Shown here one piece after another: positions 33,865 to 64,000 of a DNA stretch of 64,000 bases; the stretch's first letter is position 1, and each line of letters opens with the position of its first letter. The stretch is taken from assembly GCF_964204645.1 (NCBI RefSeq), contig NC_134026.1:15038150-15102149 (forward strand), in the 5' to 3' direction. A program made the translations under genes and the position numbers. The DNA comes from Tubulanus polymorphus. Its lineage: Eukaryota > Animalia > Nemertea. The notes under the pieces were generated by a model, which ran no database searches, had not been told where the DNA came from, and saw only the letters and a list, made by a program, of their open reading frames with translations.

Positions 33865-34051
33865 TGGAGTTAAGAAAAAGCCTAGATCTGAGAAACAAAT
33901 TAAATGGGCAAGAGAATTAGGTAAAAGATCTTCAGAATCAAAAAAAGCTAAGAAAAAGAAATTAACTGATATAAATGAATCACCTGATATTGATTCAAAT
34001 AATAATCCATCTAATTCTTCTAATGCTGGAAGTAATTATAAATTAAAGTGA
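33857..34051 (+). pseudogene. Deletion-truncated copy of the 114-aa protein
   Basis: About 205 bp missing near 34045 relative to the right arm. Confidence 0.75.
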
Positions 34052-35084
34052 AGTATCATATTCTAACGTTTCAGAATTATGGAATAAAATTAAATCTGAT
34101 AATAATATAAAATATAGTGAATTAAAATCATGGTTACAAAATCAACCCACATATAATATTCATAAAAAGATGGATAAAAAATATTTAACAAGAAAAGTAA
34201 TGGTTTCATATATTGACCAACAATGGCAAGCTGATTTAATTGACATGAAAAACTTAGAAGAATACAACAAAGGATATTTCTGGATACTAAATGTTATAGA
34301 TATATTCAGTAGATACGCATGGAGTATCCCGATTAAAAATAAAACTGGTATAGAAGTTACAAATTCTTTCAAATTAATATTTAAAGAAGCTATCCCAGAT
34401 AAAATACAATTTGATGAAGGTAAAGAATTTTATAACAAACATTTCAAAAAACTATTATCTGATAACGATGTAGAATATTTTTCAACACATTCAGATAAAA
34501 AAGCATCTGTTATAGAAAGATTTAATAAAACATTGAAAACTAGAATGTGGAAATATTTTACTGCTAATGAAACATACAAATATATCGATGTGTTAGATGA
34601 TTTAGTGAAAGGTTATAATAATTCTAAACATAGTTCTATAAATATGAAACCTATACAAGCTAGAAAAGAAGAAAATTCAGAAATAGTTTGGAATAATTTA
34701 TATGGTGCGTTTGTTACACATGATTTTGGAGAACCTAAATTTAAAATAGGACAACATGTTAGAATTTCTAAATATCGAAAAACATTTTATAAAGGTTATA
34801 CCCCTAATTTTACTGAAGAAATATTTAAAATTAAAAAGATAATATCAACTAAACCATTTGTTTATAAATTGTTTGATTTAAAAGATGAAGAAATATTAGG
34901 TTATTTTTATGAACAAGAATTATCATTAGTACCAAATCCAGATGAAATAGAATACAAAATAGAAAAGGTATTAAAAACTAAAACATTACGCGGTAAGAAA
35001 TATTCTCTGGTGAAATATAAAGGATATGATGATAAATTTAATGAATGGATTTTATCTAGTAAAATTAAAAGAATAAATGAATAA
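34047..35084 (+). pseudogene. Polinton rve integrase, left-arm copy lacking its start
   Basis: Matches 37142-38227 except that the native start is removed by the deletion. Confidence 0.85.
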
Positions 35085-35688
35085 AGATTTGTTTATATTT
35101 GAACCACATAATATGTTAGTTACTGGAGTTACAAATTGTGGTAAAACACACTTCATATTATATTTATTAGAAACTATTTATCAGAATCATTTTGATAATA
35201 TAATATTATTCTGTCCTACATATGAAATGAATAAAACATATAATAGAGATATAGTTAAGATAAAAAAGTTTATTATATTAGACCCTAAAACAGTAAAAGG
35301 AAATTTAGATAATTGTATAAAAATTGCATTAGATATTTATAAAGGATCTAATACATTATTTATTATTGATGATTGCGCAAATTTACATGATTCTAAAATT
35401 AGAGAAAGTGAGTTATGTTATTTAGCTTTCTCTGGTAGACATTTTGGGATAACAACATGGGTTTTAAATCAGAAATATAATTCAATTGTGAAAGATTTTA
35501 GAGAGAATATAAGATTTCTAGTTTTATTCTACAACAAAGATAAAAAATCTATGCAACAATCATTGGAAGAAAATCAAATTATACCTACTGAATTACATGA
35601 TGAATATATGAATAAATTAAAGAATAATAAAGGTTCAAAATTATTAATGAGATTACAATTTCCCTATGAATATAAATTTATAAAATAA
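35077..35688 (+). CDS. A32/FtsK-HerA-type DNA-packaging ATPase, 203 aa
   Basis: Walker A GVTNCGKT, Walker B LFIIDD, SGRH, LNQ, REN motifs. Confidence 0.9.
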   Translation: MNKDLFIFEPHNMLVTGVTNCGKTHFILYLLETIYQNHFDNIILFCPTYEMNKTYNRDIVKIKKFIILDPKTVKGNLDNCIKIALDIYKGSNTLFIIDDCANLHDSKIRESELCYLAFSGRHFGITTWVLNQKYNSIVKDFRENIRFLVLFYNKDKKSMQQSLEENQIIPTELHDEYMNKLKNNKGSKLLMRLQFPYEYKFIK

Positions 35689-37116: not shown

Positions 37117-37141
37117 ATGTGGTTCAAATATAAACAAATCT

Positions 37142-38227
37142 TTATTCATTTATTCTTTTAATTTTACTAGATAAAATCCATTCATTAAATTTATCATCAT
37201 ATCCTTTATATTTCACCAGAGAATATTTCTTACCGCGTAATGTTTTAGTTTTTAATACCTTTTCTATTTTGTATTCTATTTCATCTGGATTTGGTACTAA
37301 TGATAATTCTTGTTCATAAAAATAACCTAATATTTCTTCATCTTTTAAATCAAACAATTTATAAACAAATGGTTTAGTTAATATTATCTTTTTAATTTTA
37401 AATATTTCTTCAGTAAAATTAGGGGTATAACCTTTATAAAATGTTTTTCGATATTTAGAAATTCTAACATGTTGTCCTATTTTAAATTTAGGTTCTCCAA
37501 AATCATGTGTAACAAACGCACCATATAAATTATTCCAAACTATTTCTGAATTTTCTTCTTTTCTAGCTTGTATAGGTTTCATATTTATAGAACTATGTTT
37601 AGAATTATTATAACCTTTCACTAAATCATCTAACACATCGATATATTTGTATGTTTCATTAGCAGTAAAATATTTCCACATTCTAGTTTTCAATGTTTTA
37701 TTAAATCTTTCTATAACAGATGCTTTTTTATCTGAATGTGTTGAAAAATATTCTACATCGTTATCAGATAATAGTTTTTTGAAATGTTTGTTATAAAATT
37801 CTTTACCTTCATCAAATTGTATTTTATCTGGGATAGCTTCTTTAAATATTAATTTGAAAGAATTTGTAACTTCTATACCAGTTTTATTTTTAATCGGGAT
37901 ACTCCATGCGTATCTACTGAATATATCTATAACATTTAGTATCCAGAAATATCCTTTGTTGTATTCTTCTAAGTTTTTCATGTCAATTAAATCAGCTTGC
38001 CATTGTTGGTCAATATATGAAACCATTACTTTTCTTGTTAAATATTTTTTATCCATCTTTTTATGAATTTGATATGTGGGTTGATTTTGTAACCATGATT
38101 TTAATTCACTATATTTTATATTGCTATTATCAGATTTAATTTTATTCCATAATTCTGAAACGTTAGAATATGATACTTCACTTTCTGGGTTATAATATAA
38201 ATCTCTTAAATATTGTTCTTTTTTCAT
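37142..38227 (-). CDS. Polinton/Maverick rve integrase with C-terminal chromodomain-like region, 361 aa
   Basis: DDE residues in WQADL, QFDEG, VIERFN; PKFKIG..VRISK; YKIEKVL...LVKYKGY....NEWI. Confidence 0.93.
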   Translation of the reverse strand: MKKEQYLRDLYYNPESEVSYSNVSELWNKIKSDNSNIKYSELKSWLQNQPTYQIHKKMDKKYLTRKVMVSYIDQQWQADLIDMKNLEEYNKGYFWILNVIDIFSRYAWSIPIKNKTGIEVTNSFKLIFKEAIPDKIQFDEGKEFYNKHFKKLLSDNDVEYFSTHSDKKASVIERFNKTLKTRMWKYFTANETYKYIDVLDDLVKGYNNSKHSSINMKPIQARKEENSEIVWNNLYGAFVTHDFGEPKFKIGQHVRISKYRKTFYKGYTPNFTEEIFKIKKIILTKPFVYKLFDLKDEEILGYFYEQELSLVPNPDEIEYKIEKVLKTKTLRGKKYSLVKYKGYDDKFNEWILSSKIKRINE

Positions 38228-38233
38228 CTTATT

Positions 38234-39171: not shown

Positions 39172-39473
39172 TTATATTAGAGAAATTTAATAAGAATAGT
39201 ATTATAAGTATTCTTCAAATGATACTAGCTAGTTAAAGTTAAAGAATTCTAGTATTGACTACTGATACTAGCTATTTGAATTTAAAGAATTTCTATTTGA
39301 ATCTATTCAAAATATAAAGTATTCTCTTTTGAAAAGAAAATATTAAAAATATAATAGAATTCATTAGCTAGTTGAAGTTATTGTTTTTTTAATATATTTT
39401 ATTTGAATTCTATTTGATATCTCACTACTATTGTCTATCTATTAGGAGCAGTAACTATAACTGTCCAGATAAG

Positions 39474-41288: not shown

Positions 41289-41549
41289 TTATTCTATAGC
41301 TCTGTACATTGAATGTATATAGGCTAAAATAGAATGATTTTCTAGTATAAACATCGTATCCTCAACGTATTGTTCATTATTTGGATCAGTGTTCCATAAT
41401 TCAATAAATTTCTTTCCTTTTGTTAACTGTTCTGAATACTCTAGTTTCAATTTATTTTCTAAATGTGTTCTAGTTTTATTGTGTCTTGCTTTTTGGGATT
41501 TATCTATATCGATATTACATGTTGGGCAGTAGTACTTATTTGCTTCCAT
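41289..41549 (-). CDS. Zinc-finger protein, mirror copy
   Basis: One amino-acid difference from 30884-31144. Confidence 0.7.
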   Translation of the reverse strand: MEANKYYCPTCNIDIDKSQKARHNKTRTHLENKLKLEYSEQLTKGKKFIELWNTDPNNEQYVEDTMFILENHSILAYIHSMYRAIE

Positions 41550-42033
41550 TTTAATACTATATTTTTTATCAAAATTGATTTTAGAAGTTCAATGATTTAA
41601 ATGTTATTCATATATATGAATATTTTAAGAGTAATAGGGATAATGGGCTTTCATATCAAAGGTTTAATGATCGAGTTCATTAATAACATATATTAAAAGT
41701 AATTAAAAACTATAATATATTTTCATAACCGCGTGCATTTCAGTTGAATAATAGAATAATTATTATCATTTGAATATATTTGATTATTTGAATTTGTGTA
41801 TTGTAATTAAATCAATTGGTCGCGGAGCGGAGCGGTAGCGAAGTGGAGCGACCAATTGATTTAATACAATATGCTTTTTATATTATTGATATCTTAGAAT
41901 AAATATTTAGTTTTAATATAAAATGCACGCGGTTATGAAAATATATTATAGTTTTTAATTACTTTTAATATTTTGTTTTTTAATGGGCTCGACCGTTCGA
42001 CCTTTGGTATGAAAGCCCATTATCCCTATTACT

Positions 42034-42256
42034 ATTGTTTTTCATCTTTCAATTTTTTAAGATTAATTAAATATACATGAAATATATTTTCCATCTTTGC
42101 ATTTAAATTATTAGTTGCAGTAACATAAATATCTAAATTAATAAATGAACTTAAAACTTCATTTCTATATGAAATATCTTTATCAAAATTTATTGCAGGA
42201 ATATTATATTTAATTGATTTATTATATTGAAAAGCTTTTGGAAAACTATCTACCAT
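42034..42256 (-). pseudogene. N-terminal part of the split Polinton ORF
   Basis: In frame with 29876-30393 after removing the insertion and one TSD copy. Confidence 0.8.
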
Positions 42257-44346: not shown

Positions 44347-45643
44347 AATGTGAAATTTGTGGTGAACTACAAAGAAAAAGTAATATGGCTCGATATATGA
44401 AAAAACATGATGAAAATTATAAACCCCCTAAAATAAACTGCCCAAATTGTAATAAATTATTCTCAAGAAATTATGTTAAAAAACATTCAGAGAAGTGTAA
44501 AATTAATGATTCAACGGTTAATGTTGATATTAATGAAAGTAATAATAATTCTGTTGAAACTGAACCTGAAATCATTTGGAAAAGACCTTTCTTATTCTAT
44601 GATGAGAATAATATAAAAGATCATTTCTGTGAGTATTGTCGAAAAAATATAGCCCCGAAAATATAGAAGATTGGGAGAATCATCAATTTCGTAAAGTACA
44701 TATAGATAAAATTTCTAGTAAATTTGAAACAGAATTTAATGAAAGAAAAAATAAAAAGATAAGAAAAAATAAAATATGAGAAAACGTTACAAAATAATGA
44801 AGAAACACTTGAAAAGTTTGAAAAACAATATAATGAATTAGCAAGGAAAACATATTATTGTAAATATTGTAAATTGATTATTACAACAAGTAATTTAAAT
44901 CTACATAATAGAACAATAAAACATAAAGAAAACGTAAGGAAATACCAAGAACTTAATGAAAATCTATTACCAAGATATGATAGAAAAAATGCCCACAATG
45001 TATTTATGAGTACTTAAGACAAGAAGATTCTGTAATATTTTGTAATGAATGTGGATGGCAAAGAAATTTATGGGGTGATGAAAAAACTAGAGATATTCTT
45101 ATAGAACCAAAATTAAAATATCTAGATGAAATTTTTAAGATATTTTCTATGGAAGATCATACACCAGAATATAAGCAATGGCTTGAAAAAATGAAAATGA
45201 TAGAAAATAAAAATGGTGAAATAACTATGAAAGAAATAATAAAAACAATTATTCCATCAACATTTACCACAAAAGAAAAGAAAATGTATTTATATTTATT
45301 ATTTAACGATTATTATAAAAAACCTAAATTAACAAAAGAAGATATGGAAAATATAAAAGAAACATTCACAAACATATTAAAATATTATGTGGATAATAAA
45401 ATAACAGATTCAATTAATTATGAATTCTGTTTAAATAAGATTGTAAATTTTTTAAACATCGATATTATAATTCCATTTGATGAATTAACGAACAAAAAGA
45501 AACAAAGAGAGCTAGATGAAATGTGGAATAATAAAGAACTTTATTTAAATGAGAAAAATGAAATGGAAGAACCTAAACAATTAAATAAAAATGAAGAAAC
45601 CAGTAGTGATTGCGAGTATGATGATCTTGATGTGTTGTTTTAA
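44347..45643 (+). pseudogene. Multi-zinc-finger Polinton ORF, decayed
   Basis: ECEICG, CPNC..H...C, CEYC, YYCKYC....HNRTIKH, FCNECG across frameshifts. Confidence 0.55.
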
Positions 45644-45945
45644 TGGCCATAAGGTAATGTTTTTATTCCATCACCCAAAACATATCTTTTATCATCAAAT
45701 GGATTTAAACTAGTTTTTTCAACTTCATTAATGTACATCTCGTGATCTTCTGATCTCAAACAATTCATTTTGTGTTTCATGACAATTGAGTTATATAAAC
45801 ACTTTATATAATCTTGAAATACTATATGTTTATCCACCACATGGTTTGTTATTCCTTTTAACTTTTTAGCTTCATGGTATTTTGTTCTATAACTATACAT
45901 TTTACTTCTTATCCCAACAAATTCAATCATTTCATCACCCCCTAA
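45640..45945 (-). pseudogene. Protein-primed PolB, C-terminal part
   Basis: EFVGIRSKMYS, KKLKGI, K..LNPFDDKRY......TLPYGH. Confidence 0.9.
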
Positions 45946-45996
45946 TTAGGGTTTTCTGTTTCTTCACAGAAAACCCTATTGAAATTCGCGTGATTG

Positions 45997-48510
45997 TTAG
46001 GGTCTTCTGACTTTCGTCGAAAACCCTCTTGTAATTCTGTTGATCATCCATTTTTAGTTTTCAATCAAAGACCAACCTATGAATTAAAGTACATAATTTT
46101 CTTATAACAACCTGGAATAAATTAAAATAAATCTAAGGAATTCACCAAATTTCTGTATCGAACCCCTAATAGGGCCTATATAACCTATAGATTGATACTT
46201 ACATACGACAAATTGACGAAGAAACTTCATTTGACAGTATACAAACTCGTGGACAAACTCCTAAAATGAATCATGTCCTATTCACCTAGAATCAAACAAA
46301 ATACAACTAAAAGATTCACAATACAGATTTCGGTTTCGAATCCTTCAAATAGCTGTTTACTTACATGAAACGAATTATCAAACTACTTCTGCCGACAGCA
46401 TACCAACTCGCTGACAAACCCCCAAAATGAAACGTGTCACGATAAACATCTGGAATTAAACGTAATAAAGCTACAAAATTTACAAAATGTCGGTTTCGTT
46501 TACACTTACAAATGATGGATTATTAAACAACTTTGAACTCCCACAACGCCACATGTCTTTGACAATTTACAGTGAAAACCTAGAATTAAATGAAATAAAT
46601 CTTACAATTCCGATTTGAACCCAACGTAGGCCCTCTCTCTACTTGTAGGCCTAAGATCTTGAAATAGGATAAATAATGTTATGATGAAAGAGGCATAATG
46701 GTTCGGAAAAAATTGAATTCAATATGACTCTTCGCCCGGCAAAGTTTGCTTTTGAAATATCCTTTTGATTAGGCCTAGTTACACATTTTAAAAGCAAATG
46801 ACATTTTGCATCAAACTAAAAGCGGCTTTGTTGAGGAAAAGATTCATTTGAGTCGTAAAATTTATAGCCTAGAACCAATTTCTTCGTCAAAGCGTGATGC
46901 ACAATTTTGAATGGGTCTTTTTTCCACGTGGTAGTGGACAGAAAATTTGAATAGGCCTAAATAATAGAATAATCTTTCTTAGGTTGCATGATAAAGATAC
47001 AGCATTAACATAGATTAATGCTTATCTTTTACAATTAGGCTTATGTTTCAAAGGAAAACGCCCACAGTTGGTCGAACAGGGGTTAGGCATTGATGGTAGA
47101 GGGGCTGTGTGTGTGCTGAAACAGAGATAAAAATGCACGGGAACGAGTTTGTCGAGTGGAGCTTATTATTCCATCAGGGATAGTGTACTAGGCCTATAGT
47201 CATGTTATATATCAAAATGTTCCTTATTAGTTCCGCTGCATCGCTAAAAACAAATTGAGATAGGTTTCCCTGCATTTTTTTACATATTACATCACTTACA
47301 ACGATAGACGTCCGTCGCCGACTGAAAAATTCACAAAAACTTCCGCATTGAGAGCGCCACCGCACCAATTCAAATTCAATTATATGGATCGGAAACCCTC
47401 CAGCGATGCACTCTATGATCTTTAGAACCTGTCTTTGCTGACTGGGAATAAGATATTTCTCAGCGCGAAGGGGGCGGGGCGCAGCGTCACCAGATCCCGC
47501 TCCGCGAGGAAGCTAGATTTTTAAAGAAATGAGTGCACGCGACGGCCGTGACCACTTGTTAGTGACGTCATCAAGAAGGATGGCTCCGAGAATCGTCACA
47601 TCACAGGTTACTGTGAATATATGGGATTCGACCATTCAAAAGTTCAAAATGTACTTTCTTGTTTTGTAAAACAAGTTTATTCATGTCGTTATATAAAGCA
47701 TTTTGTTTGAAACATTCTTTAATAATGTTTGTTGAGTTCAAAGCCAATTGTCGTTGTGTAATTCCATACTGGACATCAAAGTTTTAGTTTCTGTTCACAT
47801 GTTTCGACTTATAAATATCCAACTTGTATGTTCTATCTTTTAATACAAGCCACGTAATTCATTGCGTATCACTCCATTAGTTTAAAAAGAGAGCACATAT
47901 TTCGATATTGTTAAATAATTAACTACATTTTTTTCTGTCACACGTTGATTTTTACCCATCACTTATAAAATTCAAATGTGCGTGATGTATTCTGTAAGCT
48001 ATGTAAGCTTGTTCTTAAAAATACACTATGAATTTTCAATTTGTACTGACCATAATAATTTATTTTTCGTAAATAAAATTTATATTTTAATTAAATAATT
48101 TCAAAATCTTTTCTATGCCCTCTGCAACAGAAAGTTACTAAGGACTATTACATATTCAGATGTTCGTTGATGATTGATTTCAATCGTCCCTTGAAATAAT
48201 TATATGAACATTATTTCGGAAAATGCAGGTGGCGCACAATCATAATACATACAACTCATCAAGCTGACGAGTCGTTTCCGTAACCAATGTTACAGACGGG
48301 TAACCAATCTACTCGACTCCACAGACAACTAAACGACCCGAGTAACCCCCAATTTGACTATAACTATAAATTATGTTATGTTAAACCGTATTGGTGTGAC
48401 TTGACACATCAAATGCGTATCCCGCATTGATATATTTCTATTATCCACTTTTCAAATTATGAATAGCACGCCTGCTCAGAAAAGCCGTTATCGCTGCTTT
48501 GCAGCTATAT
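45997..48510 (+). mobile_element. Second Helentron-like copy nested near the outer copy's left end
   Basis: Starts ttagggtcttctg...gaaaaccc; ends atcgctgctttgcagctatat. Confidence 0.6.
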
Positions 48511-49265
48511 TTATTATTTTTTTCCCTTTTCCACACAGTTTAGGTAGGCTACAATCCACGTAGACTCGCGATCGACTGTAGTCGATGTTCTGTGTGACCC
48601 AGTTATTGCTCAATCATTACAACTACCCTCCACCCCTTTTGAGATAGTGGACGCGTTCCTGGACATAAATTAGTGATCCCCAGTCAATTGCGCGGCCATT
48701 TTGATGACGTATCGCCTTGTTTTCGAATTTTTGCAATCGGATCATTTTTTCCAAAAAAAATCTCCGCGGATAAAAATACCTTCATTTCGGATCGAAAAAT
48801 AACCGTCAAGGTGAGTTTTAATAACTTTTTAAACATTTTTAATAGATTCTTAGACATGTTTTTAGTTATGTAGAATAGGTTTTATAAATTTTTATGGAAC
48901 CGAAATGATGTTTTAGTGGGCGGTTTTGGTCCGGTCATAACCCGGAAGATAAATACTGACGATGACGAAGGAAATTTCGTAGTCGCTTCGGAGGCAATTT
49001 ACTGTCACTTTAACATCATAAATTGTCTCCAAACCACCGGGAAGTAATAGCTACATCCTTAATATTACTTTCTGTGCAATTGATTCATAATTAGAGTTTA
49101 TAGTTTAGCTGTATAATGCTGTTTCTCACAAAATGTTTTAGTCACGTGACCCGAATCTGCGGCTTCGATTGGCTGAAGGCTTTGTTATTGTAAACAAGTA
49201 ACCACGTGCGTTTGTTTTGACACATCATTTCATGTTATTTACCAGTTTATTCTTGTATTTTGTAG

Positions 49266-52200
49266 ATGCCAGCTCCTAAGAAAAAAAAGAAAGTGGTCCC
49301 CTCCAAGCTTGGAATTTAAAAAAATCATCTGATGGAGAATTATTCTGTTTTAGCAGAGTTGGAAAACCTCAAAAAAGGATACATTTTGTTTGTCTTCATG
49401 GAGAATGAACATGTTTTAGGCAAAACTGTAGAAAACTGTAAGTCTTATTATCCAGACTTCAACATTAAATACCATGTTAATTAACAGTTATGTAATGGGC
49501 TCAAAGCATTTAAAAAGCCCTCAGATCAGGCTGAAATGGTTCGTTTCAAAATGTTTTGCTCTCAATCTGTTGTGAATACCGACACCATCAACAAACCAAC
49601 ATTGTTAACTGTTGAACCAACACCATTAACTTCTAGTGCTGTCGATCCATCACCATCAACTTCTAGTGCTGTCGATCCAACACCATCAACTTCTAGTGCT
49701 GTCGATCCGACACCATCAACTTCTAGTGCTGTCGATCCATCACCATCAACTTCTAGTGCTGTCGATCCAACACCATCAACTTCTAGTGCTGTCGATCCAA
49801 CACCATCAACTTCTAGTGCTGTCGATCCATCACAATCAACTTCTAGTGCTGTCGATCCAACACCATCAACTTCTAGTGCTGTCGATCCATCACCATCAAC
49901 TTCTAGTGCTGTCGATCCAACACCATCAACTTCTAGTGCTGTCGATCCAACACCAACACCATTACGAACTCCTGTAAAACCGCTACGACTGTCACCATTA
50001 AAAACTAGAAGCCCCGAGATTGTAAGAACTGTTGTGTGCTAAATGGTAGGTTAAAAGAATCGGAAATATTGAGATTACAGTTGAAAAAAAGGCATCGTAT
50101 TGAGCTTAGTTCCTTGAGGAGTATCAGTAGGACAAAGAATTCCCTTCGAGTGAAACGACTGAATCAACAAATTAAACGGAGGAGTGACAAAATAAAATTA
50201 TTTGAGGAAGATGTTATGTATAAATCTGTAGTTGAAAAATTATCTATTTCTGAGGAGAAAGTGAGGAAACCGTCGCGTAATATAAATCGAATGAAAAAAA
50301 GGCGTAGTGAGAAACCGTCCGTGGTTTCGAAATTGGAATCGGATTATAATGATGTAATCGGGACCCTTCAAAAAAACATAGACGGTAAAGATTCAGAAAT
50401 ACGTTCTCTTCAAGATGAAAATCTAATGCTTACGGACATCATTACTGGTCTACAGGCTAACAGTGGAGAACGTAGTGGCATGAAAAACAAAAAATCATTT
50501 TCAGTACTTATGCGTTTGCTTGTTATGGACTGTATCGTGAACCAAGTACCTACAGCTCATATAGAAAATGTTGTCAGGAAATTTGCTGAGCGATGTGGTT
50601 TCAATTATGACCGTGTCCCTAAAAAACCAACTATTGAGAATATAGCACGAGAACTCGGTGTCTTGGCTGATTTACAGACGGCTGAAATGATGATGGATGC
50701 AAAACATTTGACTTTGGGGTTCGACGCCACAACACAAGAAGGTGTCCATATTAATTCTATTCACGTTACTGATAGTAAAAATTGTTATGTTGTTGCCATT
50801 GATGAGCTGCCTGGTGGTACTGCTGAGGATTACCAGCAGCATATTGCTAATTCCGTGGACCATCTTGCTCTGACATATGTTCATTTTCATCCAGAAAATG
50901 AGTATGAGGACTGTCGGAAAAGTTTGATTGGTAGCATATCAAATACGCTAACAGATCGTGTTGCTGCACATCATGCTGCCATTGAACTGTTGGCAGAATT
51001 GTGGGGAAAACCATTGAATGAGTTAAATTGCCACCTCCATCCTTTAGATACTATAGCAAGTTCATGCCGTTCCACACTTAAAGGCCTGGAAACGGAGAAA
51101 GGGAAGTTATTCGGAAAGGACTGTATGGCGGCAAACATTGTTTTGCAAATGAACAAGCTCCGCTATAAAGACGGAAAAGGGGATCCAAAAGGTTTTAAAG
51201 CATTTCTGTCTGCTAACAATTTAAAGCTGGGATATATTCCGCGTTACCGTGGTAATCGGCTGCATGTATTGTTCCATATTGCTGGCAAGTTTTATGTTAA
51301 TCATGCATTATTCCTCAAGTTTCTAACAGAAACTCCTGTGAAATGTGGTGGTCTGGTAACAAGTCTGTGTTCAGACTTTGCAGAGAACATGGCAATATTA
51401 GAACTGCATGCACTTGGACTCATTGGTAAACTCCTGACTGGGCCATGGATGGCAAAATTCTACGTCTCGGCTGCAGACAGTACGATAAGTCATTACGGTG
51501 GGATCAAGGAAATACGAAATGTGATTTATGTATTGGACAAGTATACTGCCGACCCACTCTTTATCATTTCGGCATCCACAGATATGTTTGGCCAGAACTT
51601 AGATACTTCTGATTCTGTGTTACTCAAACTACAGACTGCCCCACTGGATGTAAGTCTTTTCAAGTCTCTTATGGTAGCTTGTCTTGAGACAACAGTCCGT
51701 GTTCTGCGCCGCCAGTATGGTCCATACCTGAATAAAGAAATAACAGAGCAGATGTTACTTGAAACTGAGAGTGCTAGGCTGCATAATATTGATGCCGAAG
51801 AAATAATGGGGATGTTTAGTGCACAACAAAAGAGAGCCCCAGGTGCTACTGTTTGTTACTTCACATCAAAAATGCGAGCACAAAAAAATGGCACGATGAC
51901 ATACCTGGACAATCTAAGTGACATCAGAAGAGACTGTGTTATTAACTTGGCAATATCATTCGGTCGGAAGAAAAGACTTGAAAGGCGTAAAGAACATCTC
52001 AAACTCCAAAAAGAAATCCTCCGCCGAACTAACGTTTAAATGTCGCAAAAAGACTCCAAAGAAAGACACAAAGTAGAAAAAGCTGTCCGGAATTTGGATC
52101 TGTCAAATGTGAAAAAAGACTTTCCCGATATTGACCCGGAAATGGAGCAGAATTTGATGGACATTTTGGATGGAACTGCAATTGGCAGGAACATCAACCA

Positions 52201-52396
52201 TGTCTGGTTAGATGAGAATACAAGAATAGCCACCACATATCATGGCAAGATCAAGAAGTTCAGGAGGAAAGGGAGTCCAACTTGTGTTGTAGCATATTGG
52301 GATAATGAGTCCAGTTTTGCAAATGCTGAGGACTATGATGTGTCCAAATATGAACTTGCTGCTGACCTGATATGTGGTGATCTTATCATGTATTAG
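49266..52396 (+). pseudogene. Transposase, broken into three or more frames
   Basis: LGFDATT (D1), TLTDR (D2), NCHLH (CxxH), HNIDAEE (E); frameshift near 50045, in-frame stop at 52037. Confidence 0.75.
49616..49960 (+). repeat. 30-bp coding minisatellite (PTPSTSSAVD, about 11 copies)
   Basis: caccatcaacttctagtgctgtcgatcca(a/t) units. Confidence 0.95.
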
Positions 52397-54093
52397 TGTA
52401 TTAATCATAATAATATCAATGGTAGGTCAACCATTCATAATCCAAATTCATATTGCTTTGAAATACAATGAGATCATTTTAGTTATTATTGCGCAATTCA
52501 GTTGAAGAAGATCGCAGAATTTTTTAAGGATTTAATTGATATCATAATCAAGATAAGTACATGTATATGAAGTTACTGTAGATATTTTATTACTGCTGCA
52601 CTTTGTACATATTCTTTTTTGTGACGTTTACTTGACGAGATTTTATCTGCTGATTTTAATTAGGTTAATTAGTAATTTTACAATAGTGGTCAAGATAGAA
52701 AAGGAATCTATTTATTACAATGAATAGATCTAGTTGGTGGAAAACTGCCCTGAAAATTTCATGTAATTATCTCTTAAAATAAAAAAGTTATGTCAAAATA
52801 ACTGAAAATTCTTACCCGAAATGGTCACGACTTATCCTATTGTTTTACCTTTTAAATTAATGACCGTAATTAGCACGATTTTCCAATACTGAAACTATCA
52901 TAACTTTCTTATTATTTGAGCTAGAAGGTTGAACCAGGGCTCATTTGAAAGCTCTTTTTAAATGCTATCTAATAGCGTTTCCATAATTAAGATTGGAGCA
53001 TTTTGAAATGGATTGTAGCCTACGTACACAGCTTTTGTTAAAAGTGAAAAGGCTTCCTTACCTTACCGCTGTCGCCGATACAATCCGTGTGATATCCTTC
53101 AGCTCACTTCAATCTCCAGATACTGCATGGGAATTTTGATAAATCCACGTTATAAAGGCACTGTCGAGCCGTAAACATCGGAAATTTGGCTCCGTTCAAT
53201 TAGTAGCCATGTTGTGTTTTCTTTCCGAAATTTCTCTCTTCTTTTCGAGGAAGAGCTATCGAATAATTCCCTCTCTTCTCCACAATCAATTTCAAAGTCA
53301 ATTTTATGAATTTATTGCTCAGCGGGTCCGAGTCAAATAGTTTACGAGTCCGGCGTTTGCGTTTCTGACAGGTTTACGGGCATTTGTTTGTTAACTCTTT
53401 AATATTTTTGATTTCTTATTATTCCGGTTATTTCATTTAAGTATATTGCTGATCAGTTCATGTAACCAAAAGCGTCAATAAACAGATTTTTGAATTGATC
53501 AAGTTTAAATCAAGGTCGTTGAGTCGCGGAGGGCTACTAGAATAACGTTCGTCTCAGAGAGAAAACAAACGACAGAAAAGTATCAGGTGATTATCGATAG
53601 CCTACTACGGTACACACAGTTGACAAACAGTGTTAGGCCTGTGCCGGTTAACCAACGTTGGTGCGTACTGGGAATAAATATACTGGTTGGTCAGTTGGTT
53701 CGGTTGTGAAGTGTGGAAGTTAAGAAAGCCTACCTACCGGTATTTATTTGTCTATATCATATGTAGGCCTATTATATTGTACCCAATAGCATTTTAAGTA
53801 CATAGTTGTTACTCGTGTGTGACTGTACGGTGATCTCCACAGGTTAACCGTACGTGAGTTCCCTACTAACGCCGTACGTGAGTTCCTAGTAGCCTATACC
53901 ATTTTAAGTACATACGAAGTTGTTACCCGTACGTGACTGTACGGTGATATCCACAGGTTAACCGTTCGTGAGTTCCCTAAAAACGCCGTACGTGAGTTCT
54001 CATAATCTGCCAACACGCATGCGTGAAAGAATAGTTTGGGTTAGGTGAGGCTAGGCTATTTGTAAATCAAATGTCATCCACCCTGCAGTTACG

Positions 54094-57000
54094 ATGAACT
54101 TAGTTGATGAACTTAGTTGCTGGAAAGCCAAGGCATGTCGTGGTTGCTTCCATTGTAAATATGTACAAAACGGAGATATTCGAATTAATGTTACATCATT
54201 TGAACCAGGAGATATTTCACTGTGCGCGATGGATCCACCGTCAGTTTTGCGGTCATCTGATGTGACTAGTCTACTGAACTTCGAGCCAGATATTATCGTA
54301 GATGAATGGCAAGAACGGACGAAGATGTTTGTTGACGTTTTAAGAACCGTAGTCTATGGGAACACAACTTCTTACCAGAAGGAGCAGCAAATGGCAATGG
54401 CTGGCTCGATCATGCTGTTCAGTCGTAATCGCATGTTGTCAGTCATACAGCATATTGTTGGTTTAGCTCTTGATGATGGTGGTACGTCAGATAAGGTAAG
54501 ACGCTAACCGGTAGAATAGTGTTTCAATGTTTTCTAAAATTTGCCTGATTATGTTCAATTAGATTTCCACTTACATTCATATTTCATCCTCCCTTGGCAA
54601 GGATTCGAACCTACACTCAGCCACGGCACAATCCCCTGCCACACTAATGTCTATTTCAACTTGGCTTGAGAGCACATCAGGTGGCCTAGCTCGATCAGTT
54701 TTGGTGGTACATACCTGATAGAAGTCTTATTAGCACCAGAAAGGACTGGCAGTTGACCGAAAACATTTGATTTTTATTCAGATGTAGACTACATGATTGA
54801 AATTTATCTTTAGGTTATAACAATGTGTAATCACATGGGGCTCAGTGTATCGAATAGTTCTATTCTCAACCAAAAAAGAGAAATTCAGGCGATGCATTAT
54901 ACACAGACAAAAGATTTTATAAGGTATGCTAGCGATAAGCAAGTGCTGGAGTCTAGAAATCAAATAGTCAAACACTATGAGAACTATCCGGTAACGAAGG
55001 AAGTGCATAGCAAAATATGTTCTGATCCTATGAGGACTGAAACACAGTTTCCAAGTCATCAGGTCACATTACATGAGAAAGAATGTGAATCAAAAGCTGT
55101 GGTCAAAGTTGCCTCTTCGTTCAACCATTGTCGTTCCGTCTATAGTCATGTGTCTATGAAAAAATCAAACCAATGTTTTTCCGCCCAAAGTAACCATCGA
55201 CCGATGTATTTTACGTGTCATAATGAGCAAACAACTTTACAAAACAAATCTTTCAATGTTCTAATGAAAAATGGAATGCCAATAAGTAATTCTACTACAT
55301 GTAGTTCACCAGTGTTTGCTGTTGCATCGATTCCTGCTACGTGTAAGTATTTGAAGAGCTTGGATTGTACGATAGAAACAACTCCATTTGATGTTATCGG
55401 AGATAACTTGGACTAAACTATATCGCCTACCTATATGACCTCGGAGCTTCAAAGGAAAAGTATTCATTGGTTTTTAAATGTTTGTGTCAAGAAAAGGTTT
55501 TAGCAGCTGAAACGCTTGACGACACAAAACCAAAGGCTGACATCGCTGACTTTCTGGGTTTTTCTGGGAATGGAACATCTATATTTTGTCTTGGCGCATT
55601 AATCAAAATCACTGATGTTGGTACCAAGGGTTGGCTGTAATAACAATTTTTGTTCAATATTTTAGTGCATGAAAACTTATTTTACTGTGTATACCATTAC
55701 TTGTGTATATTTCTTTGGCATATACATTTCTTCTATCCACTATATTTCAACCTAAGGTTGTGGGCCAACTCTGAATTTTGTACGTTTATTCTTTTTCAGC
55801 TTTTGTACCAATTTTTTTACAAGAGAGAAAGTGGAGGCATCAGGGGATCCCTCAGCCAGTTGAGAAACCGGATCAATAGACGCGATGATACTGGCCAGAA
55901 TAAATTGACTGATTCATTTCGGTGAGTAAATACCTGTATTGTAAGCTGTGAAATATTTGGTTAAAAAATTGTTTGTCTTTTTTTCAAATTTTAGAGCACA
56001 TTTCTCATTCTTGATGGATGCCCTAGATGCGTATATCTTGGCGGCAGCAGTTGATTATTTTCAATTGAATGGTGATGAACCCTTATCCTCAAAACCACAG
56101 AGACACAAACCACCCCCAGATTCATTGATCACATCTGATTGGATTATAGCTTGCGCTCGAGACATATTGAAAATTTATGCCAGCCATTCTCCTGTAGATT
56201 ATGTTTCACAAAATGTTGCAGAACCAAGCGATTTATACATCATTCTATCAGAAATGCGAATTGGTAAATTAAATTTCCCCTGGTACATAATTTTTTTAAA
56301 TGTTTGACTAAATTGATAATTAATCTCTTCCATATTTCAGGGGATGTGTTTAGATGCCAGGTTTGTAATAAACCATACAAAATAATGAAGAACCTTAGGA
56401 AACATTTGGTAGAAAAGCATGACTGGGATTTACCCGATGAATCTCCAAAATCGGAGAAAACTGTTGACAGTTGGCCAGCATTCAGTAGCGCGTTTATACA
56501 GCTAGGTCTACTCTTACGTGACACGAATGACAGTTTCAAACATAGTAATGGTGATCGCTCTTTTCGAAATGCGAAATTTGAAATGCTCAATGCATTTCCA
56601 TGTGGTCATGTCAAATACCGATTATGGCTTTGGCGTATGAATGCATATGAACTTGCCCTATTAACAGAAAAAGAAGCTTTCGAATATGAGTGGAACATAG
56701 GAGTTAATCTCCGAGGAGGATACAACATCCCTAACGATAATCTGGTTGAAATAAAAGTTAAGAAAATAAAGCAGAAATTGCGTGATCAAGGAGCAAATGT
56801 AACATTTAAATCAGCAAAACTTGCATTTGAATCCTGCCAAATAATTGACGAAATTGTTAACAATGTGCAAAGTTTCAGCGGTTCACCAATAAAAGGTGGC
56901 TCAAAAAGTTCAGTATCTAAATTTAAGGATGTTTCGTTGATGGTAAATGAACTAGTTGCAGCTGATGTATTCAATGTGAATGCCGAACGTGATATGGGTG

Positions 57001-57101
57001 TATTTGATAACTTTAAGAGCCCAATGGAAAGAATCAAAATTTCAGAGTTGAAAATATGGTTAAGGGATCAGAAATGTAGAGCTAAAAGGGAAATGACTTG
57101 A
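54094..57101 (+). pseudogene. Academ transposase, intron-containing and decayed
   Basis: CNHMGLSVS, IGDNLD..SIHWF, GSLSQLRN.INR, LGLL..D..D....GDR, KYRLWL, WN..VNL.GG.NIPNDN.VE; C2H2 finger; GT..AG introns (e.g. donor near 54496). Confidence 0.8.
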
Positions 57102-57832
57102 ATTAAACAAACTATCTTTGCGACAGGAGAGGGTTAAATGAATGTGTATTATTCATGTGCAATGTGTGTACATTTGTTGTCATTGAATCACTTATTACTT
57201 CAGTAGAAAATCGTTAAAAGAACTTTCTCACAGATATAATGATTTATTACAACCATTAAATGTTGTCCTAAATACGAAATATGTTTCGACTAATCACGGG
57301 TAAGACACATTTTCTGGTGCCTAGAAATTCGTTGAAACAATGTTTCACTGTATATAGTGTACTATGAGAATGCTTTGTTAACTAGTCGTATTGACCCAAC
57401 AACAAGTTCTGGTTCGTGCTTGTCTTATAATATTGTCCTTTCTTTAAGCCGGTAATATAAGTGGATGATATATTCTAAAAATATTTTAATTCTTCATCTT
57501 TATTTCATTTTCTTTATCTCAATCGGTAGCTCAGTGGGATAAAAGGTGTGATGTCGTTGCATTCATGATCAAGCGGGTTTGAGTCCTGTTGGCTGCTTAC
57601 AGTGTGTGCGGGCAACACTTCAAAGGCCGTGGTCCCTTCATGAGGTTGAATGAAATATCCAATTGGGTTAGTCATGGGGAACCTAGATCCAAACGACGTA
57701 CAAACATGATAATGATTGAAATGCTGAACAGGCTTTCTTAAATACATAAGGTTTATAACAATAATGTAAAAAGAACAAAATGATTTATTTGAGCATTCGA
57801 AATAACAAAATCTATACATAAAAATTCACGTA

Positions 57833-59755
57833 TTATAACTCGTCGAAAATGTCTGAAATGCATTGTAAACAATAATTGGCTTGATCAAATGTCAAAACTC
57901 CACAATTGTCCAAAATATCATCTTCATCGCATATATATGGTAACTCTTTTATAATTGATTCGATGACAGAGTTTGAAAAGTTTTGCACGTCCACCGTAAT
58001 ATTATTTGTTGATGAATCACAATCATACGCCTGAAGACGATTCTTTAGTTCATCGATGTTACTTTTTGTGCAAGTACGCTGCTTTTCACGTTTGGAAGGA
58101 GGCTCTGAGACTTTAGCCGGATGAGTTGACTCGCAATCAACACTTTCACATTCACACGATTCACAACATATATCACAGCAAAAATGTTTGATTTTTTGTA
58201 TGACTTCGGCGTCATAAGATTTCATTAACTGTTCACGTCTATGTATTTATGTATTTCGTCATTAAATGGTCCACTTTTTTATTCAGTTGCCGTCCGTTAT
58301 AAATGAGTATATGATCTGACTGTTTACCATCGCGACCGGCTCGACCTAACATTTGGAGGAACATATCGACATCGTATGGTGGGCCAAAATTTACAACGTT
58401 GTGAACTCCCATTCCTGCGGCGGATGTGCAGATCAGTACTCTGATGGATCCATCAGGGTCAGACATGTCCTTTCTAATAATTTCCTTTACTGGATCTGGT
58501 GTACAGCTATGATACATATTTATGTGACGGTGTCCAACTTTGACCTCCAAATCATTATAGACCTTCGCAGTTTCCATGATCGACTGGCAGAATATAATCA
58601 CACGAGGACAATTATGTGGAAAGTCATGAATTCAATCCACCTGCCAACCAAACACAACAGAGTTCGGGTCCTTGCAGGATCTTTGTAAAAGAAAGTTATC
58701 ATAACATATAAAATATTACAAATACCACCAAATTTTCAAAGTGATCGATAGAGAGACTTCAGTAAGAACTTATTTTGTTGAAATTTTTCATTCTCTGCAA
58801 CAATTTCAAACATCAAGTCAATTACCTTTAAAACTGAAAGTTTAGCGTTTTCACGGTCCGGAGAATCAACAATTTCAATAGCGTTCGAATTGATACAGAG
58901 ATTTCTCCTTATCAGTCGCCGAGTTCTATTACTGGTGGTTGCAGTAAGGGCAATGACCGGAACACCTGTATTGAAAAATTTAAATCGAAGTCAAAGAACC
59001 TAACAGAATGCAACGAGGAATAGACAATAAAAATCTACTACTTCAGCTTACCTGGAGAAAGACTCCGTAGCTCACCGATGTGGTTGAACCATGCACGGAA
59101 GGCTTCGGTTTTACTAGAATCGCCCCTGAAAATATTGGAGAGCCAAAATATAGAAGAAAATAAATAGGCTTAATAAAAAAGAACATTTTCGGACTTCGTT
59201 TAAGAGAGACAACAACAGAGAAAAGACTGATTGACATTTTCTTACCATCCAAGGAGAGTGTGTGCCTCATCTACAACGATAGCAATTAATCGTTCTGAAT
59301 ACAACGCCGATGAAACCATGTTCCTCCAAAAACTCTTTGCCAATAGTGTCTCCGGACAACAGAACACGAACTGGTATTCACCAAGCAATATTTTCCGGTT
59401 CTCTTCTTCTGCATGTCCGATATAAGATGCAGAAAACCCAAGACTTTTCAGATATTTACACTGTTCTTCCATTATACTGATTAACGGAGATACAATTATT
59501 ACTATTGTCGACGGTGAAGTCCGGGTCGATAGTTGTTTTTTCTTCAATAAAGAGTCGAAGAGTGGCAAGGCTTGATAAGATAGAGTTTTGCCGGACCCTG
59601 TCTTCGTTGATACAAAAACGTCATTTCTATCGCGTGAAACAGTTATCAAACACAACATCTGATGACTCGATAAACTTTCCAAACCGAAACTACGACAGAT
59701 TTCTTCAAATATTTGCAGTTCGAATTTACTCAGAGACGAAACGGAATCCATATTG
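57833..59755 (-). pseudogene. RecQ-like SF2 helicase of an AcademH transposon, with introns
   Basis: TKTGSGKT, VVDEAH, ALTAT, IIFC, CTSAAGMGV, QMLGRAGRDG, CCDIC; GTAAG donors near 59245 and 59051; convergent with the Academ transposase. Confidence 0.85.
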
Positions 59756-59852
59756 GAATTGATTGCCAAAGCGATTATACAACGAGCAATGTGATTGGTG
59801 CCGCCAGTTTTCGTTCGGATAGTGCGCATGTAACTGCGCACATGGTCGTTTA

Positions 59853-59918
59853 TGGCAGGGGTTCGTGCCGTGGCTGAGTGTAGCGATGCCATCAGGTTCG
59901 AGTCCCTGCAGAGGGAGG
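59853..59918 (+). mobile_element. tRNA-like SINE head (second, inverted copy at 54588-54641)
   Basis: gtgccgtggctgagtgtag...ggttcga(g/a)tcc..gggagg at both sites. Confidence 0.5.
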
Positions 59919-60526
59919 TTGATGGGAATAGGGCCTATTGATTGGGCTTATTATTTCCTGCTTTAGAATACTGAAATAAACCTAATGTTCATTCAAATAT
60001 TCAACATCGGTGCAAGTTGGATTACTGTATACATGTACTGTAGGTTTTCATGTTGTATGAATATTTTACAGTTCAAATGGGTATGATGCTAATTCCAATG
60101 TCAGACGCATGAAGTTAGATGGTCAAGGACCGTCAACACCAAGATATCTCTCTTCGACCGATGTTGTACCATAGAAGATCTGATTCTTTTAACTCAGGGA
60201 AAGTGATTCAACACGATCGACATAACACTGGAATAGGTTTGCAGTAACTAACGGTTCATTTCATTTAGTCTTATGTACTTTTTAGCCAATTTGGATTTGA
60301 TTGTAATTGAAACTCTGGAACTGTAAACAAAAGACAAGTAAGACAAGTTGAAAAAACACAAGTTATGCTTGATTCTCATGTTCAAATTTAATTCAAATTT
60401 ATTTTATTACATCATATTTACAAAGCATATCATTGGTTCATACAGTTATAAAAATTTAGGGCAGAACAAATATTATTACAGAATTTCCAAAAGGCAATGA
60501 ATTTCTATAACTAAATGAACATTATT

Positions 60527-61077
60527 TTTAGCCCACTTGGGACTTAAGTCCCAGCGGGCTATTGCGTTCACTTTTCGTCCGTCGTCCATCCGTCCGTCGG
60601 TAGACGGAAATCATTTATTTTAGGAAGTTTTGAAGACGCTTCAATGTAATGTCTTGATATTTGGGTTACACATGTATCTACTCTAGACACATTTTCAGCC
60701 CAAAAACTGGCCCTGTCAGAATCAAGATAGCCGACTGGCAGCCATTGTTGGTTGCCAAAATCAACACTTTTTACACATTTTTGAACTTTTTGAGGGAAAT
60801 TTTGAAGATGCTTTGATCAATAACCTTGATCTTTCGGATATATGTGAATGCCCCCTGGGCCCATCGGATACGGACTCAAGATGGCCGTCCTATGACCTTT
60901 TTTAGTGCCCAAAAATGTCAATTTTGGCCCGAATTCTGAGTTTGCCATTTCTCATTGCAATTTGTGATGGGTATTCTTTGAAAAGAGATGTTTTATACCT
61001 TTGATACCTGAATTGTTAGATTGTTGAGCATTTGGAACCACTTCCCAAGTGGGCATGGTGTCCCTGGACCCCTAGTT
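60527..61077 (+). mobile_element. HINE/DINE-1-like element
   Basis: 5' subTIR gcccacttggg with adjacent IR, (CCGT)n microsatellite, 3' subTIR cccaagtgggc, short palindrome and ctagtt; absent from the homologous host repeat near 13660. Confidence 0.75.
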
Positions 61078-61684
61078 CTAATAACTCAGATCAGATGACT
61101 CTCCCGTTTATTAGGAAACACACGCAACTAGTGGAATAGGTTTGATTTACACACATGTTGCAGGTATCAATTGTTTATCGCTATAGAATTTGTAATCCAT
61201 AAAAGCCAAAATCAACATCAGCCGGAAACCCAGACCAAACCAATTCATAATTTATTGATTGAATCTACACTACAATATATGTATTTATTCAAATATTTCA
61301 ACAAAAACATTAACTTCATAAATCTATTCTAAATCCTAATACGTTCTTATCTGTGAATTTACTCAATCTATCGGCTCAGCAGGTGCTTAAGATGAGTTCT
61401 TAATAGGTCAGATCCATTTTTAAGGATGGTGATAATACAGTATCATGATGTTTAAATGCCAAAATAAATGCCTGGTCAAATAAATATATTAATATTTGTG
61501 ATTGTACGTCAGCGTATGTTCAGTTTCAAAGCTGAATCATATTTGACGTTTACACAGTGGTTGCATATTAGGTTCGAATCTGTCAATGCATTTTATTCTA
61601 TGTATCGATATTTAGATTTACTACAATTCCTATCATTCTGAATGGCTTTACAGAAAACCCGTCATCGCTGCTTCGCAGCTATAT

Positions 61685-63365
61685 TTCATCTTTAAACTTA
61701 CCAGGCTGCTTTTTATCATCATTGCTAAATAGTTCATGATCTTTTGGATAATTGCTAAAGTCAAAATGATGTTTTAATATTTCTAAGTCTTGTTATGTCA
61801 TTTGTCTTGATTTTTAGTATGTAAGCATCTCTATTTAAGAGGATTAATGGAAATCCACAGTTAAATGTTTCATCTTCAGTTGATAAATCATAAACATAAT
61901 CTGTTGGGTTATATATTTCAAATAAATTTCTAACTTCTTCAGTTAGTTCATTTTCTACATGCGTTAATTGAAATACATTTGGTTTATCCTTTCTAATATT
62001 AACCAACATATCAAATCCTAATGAACTGCATAGTATATTTTATCCTGATATAGCAACTTTCCCTTTTTGTATCAAAGATATAGTTTTCTGTTTTGTAAAT
62101 TTTTTAGTGCCATCTGCAGCATAGAATCCAATGAAGAACCATTTTCTTAAATTATCTTTTGCATTTAATACATAATCTGGTACTATCTTTTCTTTAGTTG
62201 AAGTATTACTTTTCACTATTGCATGAATATAGAATTCATCATTACATTTAATTGCAAAATCTTTAGTATTATTTACTTGTATATTATAAATTGCTGATGA
62301 TTTCATAAAATCTATGATTTTAAATGTTTTATTTGGGTAAACTTCTTCACAGTATTTCTTTATTCTTTCTAATAATTTCAAATCTTGATTACATAAATAC
62401 CAACAATATTGAGTTTTATTAACATGCTTATACACACCTGCTGAACCATAACCCATAAAAAGATCCTTAAATAAAATATTCTTTTTCTTCCAATGTTTCT
62501 GGTTCTATATTACAAATATTATCAATGATTTCATCAAATGACATAGGGTTTATTCTTGGATAAAATCTTTTATGTAATAATTCATCCCCAATTTTTATAT
62601 TAGTTGGTTTAATTTCATCACCATTTCGTTTAATTAAGCTATGATCTTCTGTAACATCTACAAACCCTAATTTAGTTCTAACTCTACAGATTTTCTTATT
62701 TGTTTTATGCCTAATTATATTCTTTACTTTTTTCCATCCATTTCTTGTCCAATCATCCATTAATCCATTTATTTGTATTAATTCTTTTTCACCATATGAA
62801 ATATAGAGTTCATTTTGTTTTGGAATTATTTCTGAAATTCTTCTTATTAATATTTGGTTATTGTATTTTAATAATATTGGGGTATCAGCTGTTACAGAAT
62901 CAAAATATAATATTTCAATATGCTTTTCCCCGAAAAGTGGTTGTAAAACATTATAATAAAAATCATACATTAATAATTTTGATATTTCTAAAACAGTTGA
63001 ACCAATGAATATAGGTTTATTAAATTTCATTGACGTTCTTTTTAATTTTACCGCGGTTAAATAATCTTCAAATCTTTTATTTCCTAAATGTCTAGGACTT
63101 GATTGTCTTAATCGTTCAGAATCATTTACTAATTCAATATCATTTCTATTTCTAATATTTTCACATGTTTTTCCATAAAAACTATTATTCATTAATTTGA
63201 AGAAATCTTTTTCAAAATCTGTTTTAGATATGGTTCTCTGTTGATTTTTAAAATCTATATTTTTCTAACCACTTCGATTGATTAAATTCCATATATCTAT
63301 GTACTTTCTTTAATTTCATTCCTTGTTTTAGATAAAATTTTAACATTCTATAATGACCAATATAA
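61685..63365 (-). pseudogene. Protein-primed PolB (Polinton/adintovirus type), central part with intein
   Basis: HYRMLKFYLKQGMKLKKVHR..EFNQSKWL; DFEKDFFKLMNNSFYGKT.EN (motif B); KPIFIG..VLEISKLLMYDFYY; ILYFD; FDFSNYPKDH..PGKFKDE. Confidence 0.92.
61833..62898 (-). other. Intein (~355 aa) with LAGLIDADG homing endonuclease in PolB motif C, decayed
   Basis: Block A SVTADTPILL right after YFD; block B VDVTEDHSL; LAGLIDADG-like G.FMG(Y)GS and FIGFYAADG; block F/G YVYDLST....FNCG..LILLN; two stops and one frameshift. Confidence 0.9.
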
Positions 63366-63416
63366 TTAGGGTTTTCTGTTACATCACAGAAAACCCTATT
63401 GAGATTCGCGTGTTTC

Positions 63417-63451
<35 letters not shown>

Positions 63452-64000
63452 TTTTACCACACATTTTTTGTCAAAAGTACATAGGCTTTTTTACATTACC
63501 GCTGTTGCCGATACAATCCGTCTAATATCATTAAGCTCAGTACGATCTACAAATACTCCGTGCGAATTTTGAAGAATCAACGTTACAAAAGCACTGTCGG
63601 GCCGTAAACATCGAAAATTGAGCCCCATTCAAAGAGCCGACATGTTTTTCTAAGTCGTCTTGCCGAAATCTACCGCACGTTTCTTGTCACATCGATTATC
63701 AATTCAAGCATAAATTAACAAATTTATTACCGAAAGATTGCACATTCTGTCGCGGTTTTTAAAAACTAATTTTAACAGTAACCCATTTTCCTCATCAAAT
63801 TATATTACTGATACACAGGAAATATACTACTTTAGATTTTAAAAGCACTGTCGAGCCGTAAACATCGACAAATCGACGTGTGTCACTACATCGTCGTTCC
63901 GGGAATCAGCTGCGAGTTTCTCCTCATTCTGAGAATCAAATCGAGTACAAATTAATTTATTACTACCAGTGATTTGGCTGCGGGCGTCAAGCAGTTAATT
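63366..64000 (+). mobile_element. Another Helentron-like copy cutting PolB; runs off the window
   Basis: ttagggttttctg...cagaaaaccctattg then (ATT)n; 63484-63635 homologous to 53050-53200. Confidence 0.7.

Follow-up and report, generated by a model that had tools for sequence, protein, structure and literature searches.

A decayed homing-endonuclease intein at motif C of the protein-primed DNA polymerase of a Polinton whose host is very likely an animal

By established intein chemistry, Ser1, the His of block B, the terminal Asn and the Thr at position +1 are the residues that would carry out the excision of an intein of the present kind. A well-described insertion point is the pol-c site, YGD/TDS (the slash marks the point of insertion), in the RNA-primed DNA polymerases (PolB) of Mimivirus, other Nucleocytoviricota and archaea, as given in the available text of PMC549080; an earlier note on the present DNA had named the same motif-C site, in agreement with that paper. 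The inteins described there have Ser1, a terminal Asn, a LAGLIDADG domain and a length of about 350 aa. The intein of the present study shares the site and these features with them; it differs in that its host is the protein-primed PolB (pPolB) of an integrating, multi-copy Polinton and in that it belongs to a clade of its own. In the homing model, as outlined in PMC10710043, the endonuclease cuts an empty allele and repair copies the intein in, and flanking codons are described as being co-converted when an intein invades (PMC10643990, in the part available).

Other described systems come close in one respect or another. Endogenous viral DNA polymerases of algae and a labyrinthulid (PMC10710043) likewise carry an intein in a virus-derived polymerase on eukaryote nuclear DNA; unlike the present case they are not from animals, and section 8 and two supplement files of that paper name no Polinton, Maverick or protein-primed polymerase. 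In Polinton pPolBs, inserted HNH and VSR nuclease domains are known (10.1101/2023.08.22.554363; PMC11071308), and PMC11071308 suggests that they result from intein invasions. The available parts of both papers describe no Hint domain in these fusions, whereas here there is a complete active-site intein with empty alleles. Polintons or Mavericks, as characterized in the main text of PMC8097293, have a pPolB, an rve integrase with chromodomain, an A32-type ATPase, low GC and many decayed copies, as does the element described here; our copy is recognized by its pPolB, integrase and ATPase. The word intein is absent from that main text. A 2021 review states, in its available part, that inteins are absent from metazoan genomes (PMC8529194), as the earlier note had also held, and the accessible text of a eukaryotic intein survey places viral inteins only in large DNA viruses and unclassified viruses (PMC5784728). 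In a survey of openly accessible papers, no report of an intein in a Polinton was found. A Hint-domain intein in a pPolB is not described in the available parts of PMC12220804, PMC11071308, PMC5784728, 10.1101/2023.08.22.554363, PMC5718144, PMC3671162, PMC8529194, 10.64898/2026.10.13.758929, PMC549080, PMC8097293, PMC10643990, PMC13768754 and PMC10710043.

The window analysed here is a stretch of 64,000 nucleotides. We consider it quite probable that it holds a decayed homing-endonuclease intein in the catalytic motif of a Polinton pPolB, very likely in an animal genome, and that intact relatives, predicted to splice, have likely spread by cutting intein-free copies. The parts of the intein and of its host gene are as follows.

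61833..62898, minus strand: decayed LAGLIDADG intein at the pol-c site (motif C, D/TDS), with 2 stops and 1 frameshift
62635..62898, minus strand: N-terminal splicing (Hint) region, blocks A and B; TIGR01445 above cut-off, residues 124-210 of P0001
62652-62641, minus strand: block B, TEDH
62441..62478, minus strand: first LAGLIDADG motif (block C), disrupted by a stop and the frameshift; catalytic acidic position not conserved
62109..62138, minus strand: second LAGLIDADG motif (block E, FFIGFYAADG), intact
61833..61898, minus strand: C-terminal splicing blocks F (YVYDL) and G, with the terminal Asn
62899..63367, minus strand: N-extein, pPolB palm and fingers and the first Asp of motif C; P0238 residues 1004-1163, 74-81% identity
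63198-63169, minus strand: motif B (KLMNNSFYGK) in the N-extein
near 63260, minus strand: frameshift in the N-extein
61682..61832, minus strand: first part of the C-extein, with Arg at +1 and a frameshift near 61790
45643..45945, minus strand: C-terminal end of the same pPolB, meeting the 61682 piece at P0238 residue 1213

The insert runs from a Ser codon (62898-62896) to an Asn codon (61835-61833) and is 1,066 nt long, that is, 355 codons and one base, so the boundaries and the size of about 355 aa that had been proposed for it are exact. On the minus strand the order is ...FGEKHIEILYFD, then the insert (Ser1 to Asn), then RDAYILKIKT; the residues just N-terminal of it are IEILYFD, and it lies between the first Asp and the Thr of motif C, as pol-c inteins do. 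For motif reading the insert was translated with X at its two breaks. Block A reads SVTADTP, and all the blocks that had been named (A, B, F and G, with two LAGLIDADG-like motifs) were located within it. Ser1, the TxxH of block B, the Asp of block F and the terminal Asn, which are features of class-1 inteins, are present. The profile of the intein N-terminal splicing region, TIGR01445, matched the insert with 31.6 bits against a curated cut-off of 24.5, which bears out the Hint domain that had been predicted; PF14890 (E 4e-6) stayed under its cut-off, and PF14528 was weak in the window and above its cut-off in the relatives P0005, P0006, P0009, P0151 and P0152.

The earlier note had called this copy dead, and the two stops (62467-62469 and 62040-62042), the frameshift (near 62462) and the Arg at +1 are all real. 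The intein is out of frame with the host ORF, a Cys, Ser or Thr nucleophile is missing at +1, and a pair of LAGLIDADG motifs with both catalytic acids is not found, the first motif being broken. As judged from its sequence the window copy is a non-functional, decayed intein because of the stops, the frameshift, the non-conserved catalytic position of the first motif and the Arg. Two points of that reading needed correction. RDA had been taken as a mutated TDS; the Arg is a true change, while the Ala need not be a lesion, since Ala stands there in 4 of 6 intein-free members of a related family. And of the two LAGLIDADG motifs, both are present, while the loss of the first-motif acid, which is kept in all 7 intact inteins listed, had been overlooked.

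The host gene is a protein-primed polymerase of Polinton type, as had been thought, and not an RNA-primed PolB of large DNA viruses. Its pieces match the intein-free pPolB P0238 at 81% (63367-63257), 74% (63264-62896), 84% (61792-61682) and 70% (45945-45625), and relatives of this pPolB carry PF03175 and also an Endonuclease_7 (HNH) domain. The pieces 61792-61682 and 45945-45625 abut at P0238 residue 1213; therefore the gene is split by a 15.7-kb insertion. A third correction to the earlier reading is that the extein has two frameshifts of its own and is interrupted by two repeat insertions; the 5' part of the gene lies outside the window. Some close intein-free relatives (P0239 and P0372-P0374) stand in the database under the name Bartonella, each on a contig of some 1 kb, which is probably host contamination. 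The insertions and the Polinton genes are the following.

45946..61681, strand not assigned: nested 15.7-kb insertion splitting the pPolB, GC 0.37 against 0.24 in the Polinton
63363..63462, strand not assigned: end of a second insertion of the same repeat type (hairpin and AAT microsatellite), cutting the pPolB upstream at ~63365
34047..35081, plus strand: Polinton integrase (rve and chromodomain), PF00665 above cut-off
35077..35685, plus strand: Polinton packaging ATPase (Pox A32 type), PF04665 above cut-off
37145..38233, minus strand: another copy of the integrase, from the opposite arm of a near-perfect inverted duplication

The large insertion begins with a repeat family of the window that carries GGGTTTTCTG, and an inverted match of its subterminal motif lies at the other end; positions 63363-63419 match 45943-45999 at 91%. 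By their subterminal inverted motifs, terminal hairpin and microsatellite we take both insertions to be Helentron/HINE-like. Further members of the repeat family lie at 13.1-13.6 kb and 22.4 kb. Inside the large insertion a transposase-like ORF of 676 aa (50009-52036), which has no Pfam match and is widespread in aquatic animals, stands beside DEAD and Helicase_C fragments; 50009-52036, 56268-57098 and 58242-59934 possibly form one large DNA transposon.

This insertion also bears on the nature of the host. Homologues of the 676-aa ORF numbered 195, and among the best 120 all 32 that carry an organism name are from animals (molluscs, Hydra, echinoderms, fish, arthropods, an annelid, a priapulid and a hagfish). 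BEL/Pao domains are found at 4.7 and 7.6-8.0 kb of the window, and the BEL/Pao group is mainly metazoan. An animal host, which the earlier note had assumed, is on these sequence grounds very likely. It could be argued that the element does not lie in an animal nuclear genome at all, the contig being a chimera or from a protist, or the intein-bearing copies being free viruses of a symbiont, and the intact relatives do come from ENA and JGI records. We regard this as very improbable: the pPolB itself is split by the insertion whose ORF has only animal names among its 32 named homologues, the BEL/Pao domains stand in the same window, the same read runs cover the intein and the adjoining high-copy repeats, and the copy has decayed like an integrated fossil.

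The body of the Polinton contains an inverted duplication of about 4.7 kb (30399-35113 against 37113-42034, 99.2-99.4% identical), which doubles the integrase and several small ORFs and flanks the ATPase and a 54-nt tandem array. The C-terminal pPolB piece borders the low-GC region that holds the rve-chromodomain integrase and the A32 ATPase, and because of this abutment, the strand and the GC content the intein-bearing polymerase would belong to that Polinton. Among 22 virus contigs with the same pPolB family, 15 match the window integrase and 4 the window ATPase, and none of the 22 has the intein. The virus contig L059 has an A32 ATPase and a weak match to an adenovirus protease; one window candidate gave no alignment with its minor-capsid-like ORF. 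Major or minor capsid and protease genes gave no Pfam match among the window ORFs scanned, part of the element being outside the window, with one Polinton end beyond position 64000. No tRNA genes were found in the window. Fragments at 28471-29682 beside the Polinton, without Pfam match, are presumably a Penelope-like retroelement by their motifs.

The earlier note had guessed that intact copies may exist, and such copies were found in five pPolB clusters. A search with the insert gave 696 longer proteins, and among the best 120 of them ranks 1, 2 and 5 are pPolBs (P0005, P0006 and P0009, with 61%, 46% and 44% identity to the insert); 115 of these 120 carry PF00136 of RNA-primed polymerases and 2 are topoisomerases. 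A second search added the intact P0151 and P0152 and the partial P0150 and P0232. Thus intact ORFs of a pPolB with an intein exist in the clusters P0005, P0006, P0009, P0151 and P0152, and all five have Ser1, TEDH, the terminal Asn, Thr at +1 and both LAGLIDADG acids, in frame. Identity between the clusters is 42-77%. The penultimate residue is His in three of the five and Ser and Lys in the others; over all six pPolB inteins the penultimate His is absent in three (Leu, Ser, Lys). A search of 50% representatives gave 135 new matches, 3 of which span the junction (the closest fragment, P0237, at 77%) and 91 of which cover extein only, with D-T-D-S at the site in 81 of these 91.

A fold prediction was made for the intact P0005 intein from an alignment of 25 rows, and it reached pLDDT 85.7 and pTM 0.87. 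Its best PDB matches are the endonuclease-bearing inteins 7qsu, 2cw7, PI-PfuI and PI-SceI (E 1.6e-15 to 3e-10), and its best BFVD matches include PolBs of a phycodnavirus, Pandoravirus and Marseillevirus, so that a Hint fold is found in this predicted model. A PDB sequence search with the insert gave one weak match and GenBank phages one distant match; ESM Atlas gave clusters below 0.9 only, mostly Nucleocytoviricota PolB inteins. With P0005 as query no locus was found in viral and metagenome contigs. A DNA pattern of blocks F and G gave 15 viral and 42 metagenome loci and nothing in prokaryote genomes. One of these 57 loci is in a pPolB (L049, a broken copy on the contig of P0150), and the other 56 look like giant-virus PolB by flanks judged by eye; hence no intact intein-bearing Polinton was seen with its neighbouring genes in these contigs. 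It could be thought that the insert came here by chance, as part of a giant-virus PolB or as a free-standing endonuclease gene, and at no time worked as an intein in a pPolB, since 115 of the 120 listed relatives sit in RNA-primed polymerases. We give next to no credence to this, as there is pPolB on both flanks, the insertion is codon-exact and at the same site in five intact ORFs, and the exact junction is present in empty alleles.

These empty alleles had been called for as a check, and exact ones were found both in homologous proteins and in reads. The P0006 family has 136 members, and among the 15 listed 7 are filled, 6 are empty and 2 are fragments short of the site; the listed members lie on contigs of 57 kb to 1.02 Mb and their exteins are 94-99% identical to P0006. 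In only 10 of the 1,191 extein columns do filled and empty members differ as groups; these columns all fall in the range from -7 to +44 of the site, 6 of them within 10 residues of it (nominal p 2e-9, the members being not independent). At the site the empty members read YFD/TDA (3), YTD/CDS (2) and YGD/TDA (1), so D/TDS is kept in 0 of 6 of them against 81 of 91 other extein-only matches. Such site-clustered differences and the altered D/TDS are consistent with homing and escape, and would point to target loss in the surviving empty alleles.

Raw genomic reads of organism A, a relative, were also compared (run X5, of which about 12% was read). They cover the N-extein to a depth of about 570-600, against about 260 just inside the intein. 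Exactly at 62899, 117 reads depart from the window sequence, and in 57 reads (33 + 21 + 3) the two exteins are joined directly. A contig of run X1 lacks a net 1,066 nt. Most reads do not share the lesions of the window copy; they differ from it at the two stops (208 of 216 and 104 of 106), at the frameshift (149 of 206), at the +1 codon (112 of 121) and at the first endonuclease motif (209 of 211). Organism A thus holds filled and empty copies, mostly without the lesions of the window, with the limit that short reads cannot show one whole copy. It may be another species than that of the window, because most reads (2,624 of 3,027) are under 95% alike. Over 61930-62113 the coverage by its reads falls, and at 62007 the sequence of 54 reads parts from that of the window; this points to a second variant of the intein in organism A.

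Separate phylogenies of intein and extein, which the earlier note had proposed, were made. Intein trees were built from 123, 60, 46 and 27 of 208 motif-C inteins (320-375 aa) after de-duplication, with three mis-cut rows dropped. In each of the four trees the six pPolB inteins group together as a single clade (FastTree 100 with 123 rows; IQ-TREE 100/100 with 60, 57 and 27 rows). When rooted on pol-b-site inteins, this clade falls inside the pol-c inteins of RNA-primed polymerases (100/99, 95/88); 5 of the 8 outgroup rows of this tree were cut too long (476-490 aa), and columns filled in fewer than half of the rows were removed. No supported sister group of the pPolB inteins is seen in it, and their identity to the best giant-virus-type inteins is 43-50%. 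On the evidence of this nesting the intein is likely to have passed from giant-virus-type PolB to pPolB, in a single old entry. The earlier note had proposed that an intein moved between a large DNA virus and a Polinton; the giant-virus link holds, and in place of a recent jump into the window element it would be an old single entry without an identifiable donor. Inteins ending in FNxGFPLI, from a giant-virus group, were considered as the source of a recent jump; this is not supported, as they did not group with the pPolB inteins.

P0022, P0024, P0034, P0190 and P0203, which we take from their motifs to be T4-type phage polymerases, carry pol-c inteins nested among those of giant viruses (joint clade 100/97), which suggests that giant viruses and phages have exchanged inteins. 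The type II topoisomerase P0010 has an intein at a D/TDG site that falls among the pol-c inteins, and a jump to a non-homologous gene with a similar motif is possible. The giant-virus-type PolBs P0011, P0012, P0014, P0015, P0149 and P0157 have two inteins in motif C, two residues apart (YGD/TD/S).

In the extein tree (55 rows, site region removed) the 7 filled rows need 6 presence changes, at least 5 of them forced by starred branches, so each filled lineage has close empty relatives; these 6 changes are no fewer than those with shuffled labels in 137 of 500 cases. The P0009 extein is at most 28-30% identical to the others over short stretches, while its intein is 42-49% identical to theirs, an identity that suggests movement of the intein between pPolB groups. 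Two trees support a place for the P0009 intein within the other pPolB inteins; the AU test does not, since in it a position as sister to the other five was not rejected (p 0.196). Apart from P0009, the intein and extein trees agree for the other five of the six clusters, and this agreement would suit one gain and repeated loss as well as repeated homing. It could be possible that the intein still splices and no longer homes, having been captured once and then passively copied with the Polinton, its patchiness arising from repeated loss and recombination between sublineages. The agreeing trees and the AU result speak for such passive carriage. We consider it unlikely all the same: the retention of the LAGLIDADG acids in 7 of 7 intact inteins listed, across 42-77% identity, is hard to explain unless they are used, the filled and empty alleles differ in a cluster at the site, and the nearly invariant catalytic motif is altered in three different ways.

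The explanation that we prefer is one old transfer followed by homing. A pol-c intein of a giant-virus-type RNA-primed PolB would have entered a pPolB, aided by the shared D-T-D-S motif. In class-1 splicing, Ser1, the His of block B, the terminal Asn and Thr at +1 would act to rebuild the active site with its D-T-D motif, so that the intein would cost the Polinton little. Where a nucleus contains a further Polinton copy with an empty motif C, the LAGLIDADG domain would cut the DNA there, and repair on the filled copy as template would bring in the intein together with some neighbouring codons. Being multi-copy and dispersed, the family would provide both the targets and the templates in one nucleus, unlike single-copy animal genes, and empty copies would persist through changes of the site. 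The copy in the window would have died after integration by point lesions and transposon insertions. Whether homing inteins are active today in animal-germline Polintons, where they would splice, convert empty copies in the manner of a gene drive, force escape mutations in the catalytic motif and have crossed between distant pPolB groups, is to us evenly balanced.

Beyond the earlier note, the sequences compared here show that the pol-c inteins of Polinton polymerases form a clade, and that intact alleles, empty alleles and alleles changed at the site all exist. If our reading is true, Polintons have brought true inteins into animal chromosomes, and the pol-c allele extends to protein-primed polymerases; if the reading of present-day activity is also true, they would be the first inteins at work in animal chromosomes. 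The pPolB inteins would show directly that giant-virus-type genomes and Polintons have exchanged genes. Since the element cannot replicate unless an intein in its catalytic motif is spliced out, conservation of that intein would be a sign that a Polinton is still being expressed. With its filled and empty alleles, and others altered at the site, such a family would offer a natural system for homing and resistance among dispersed copies in an animal.
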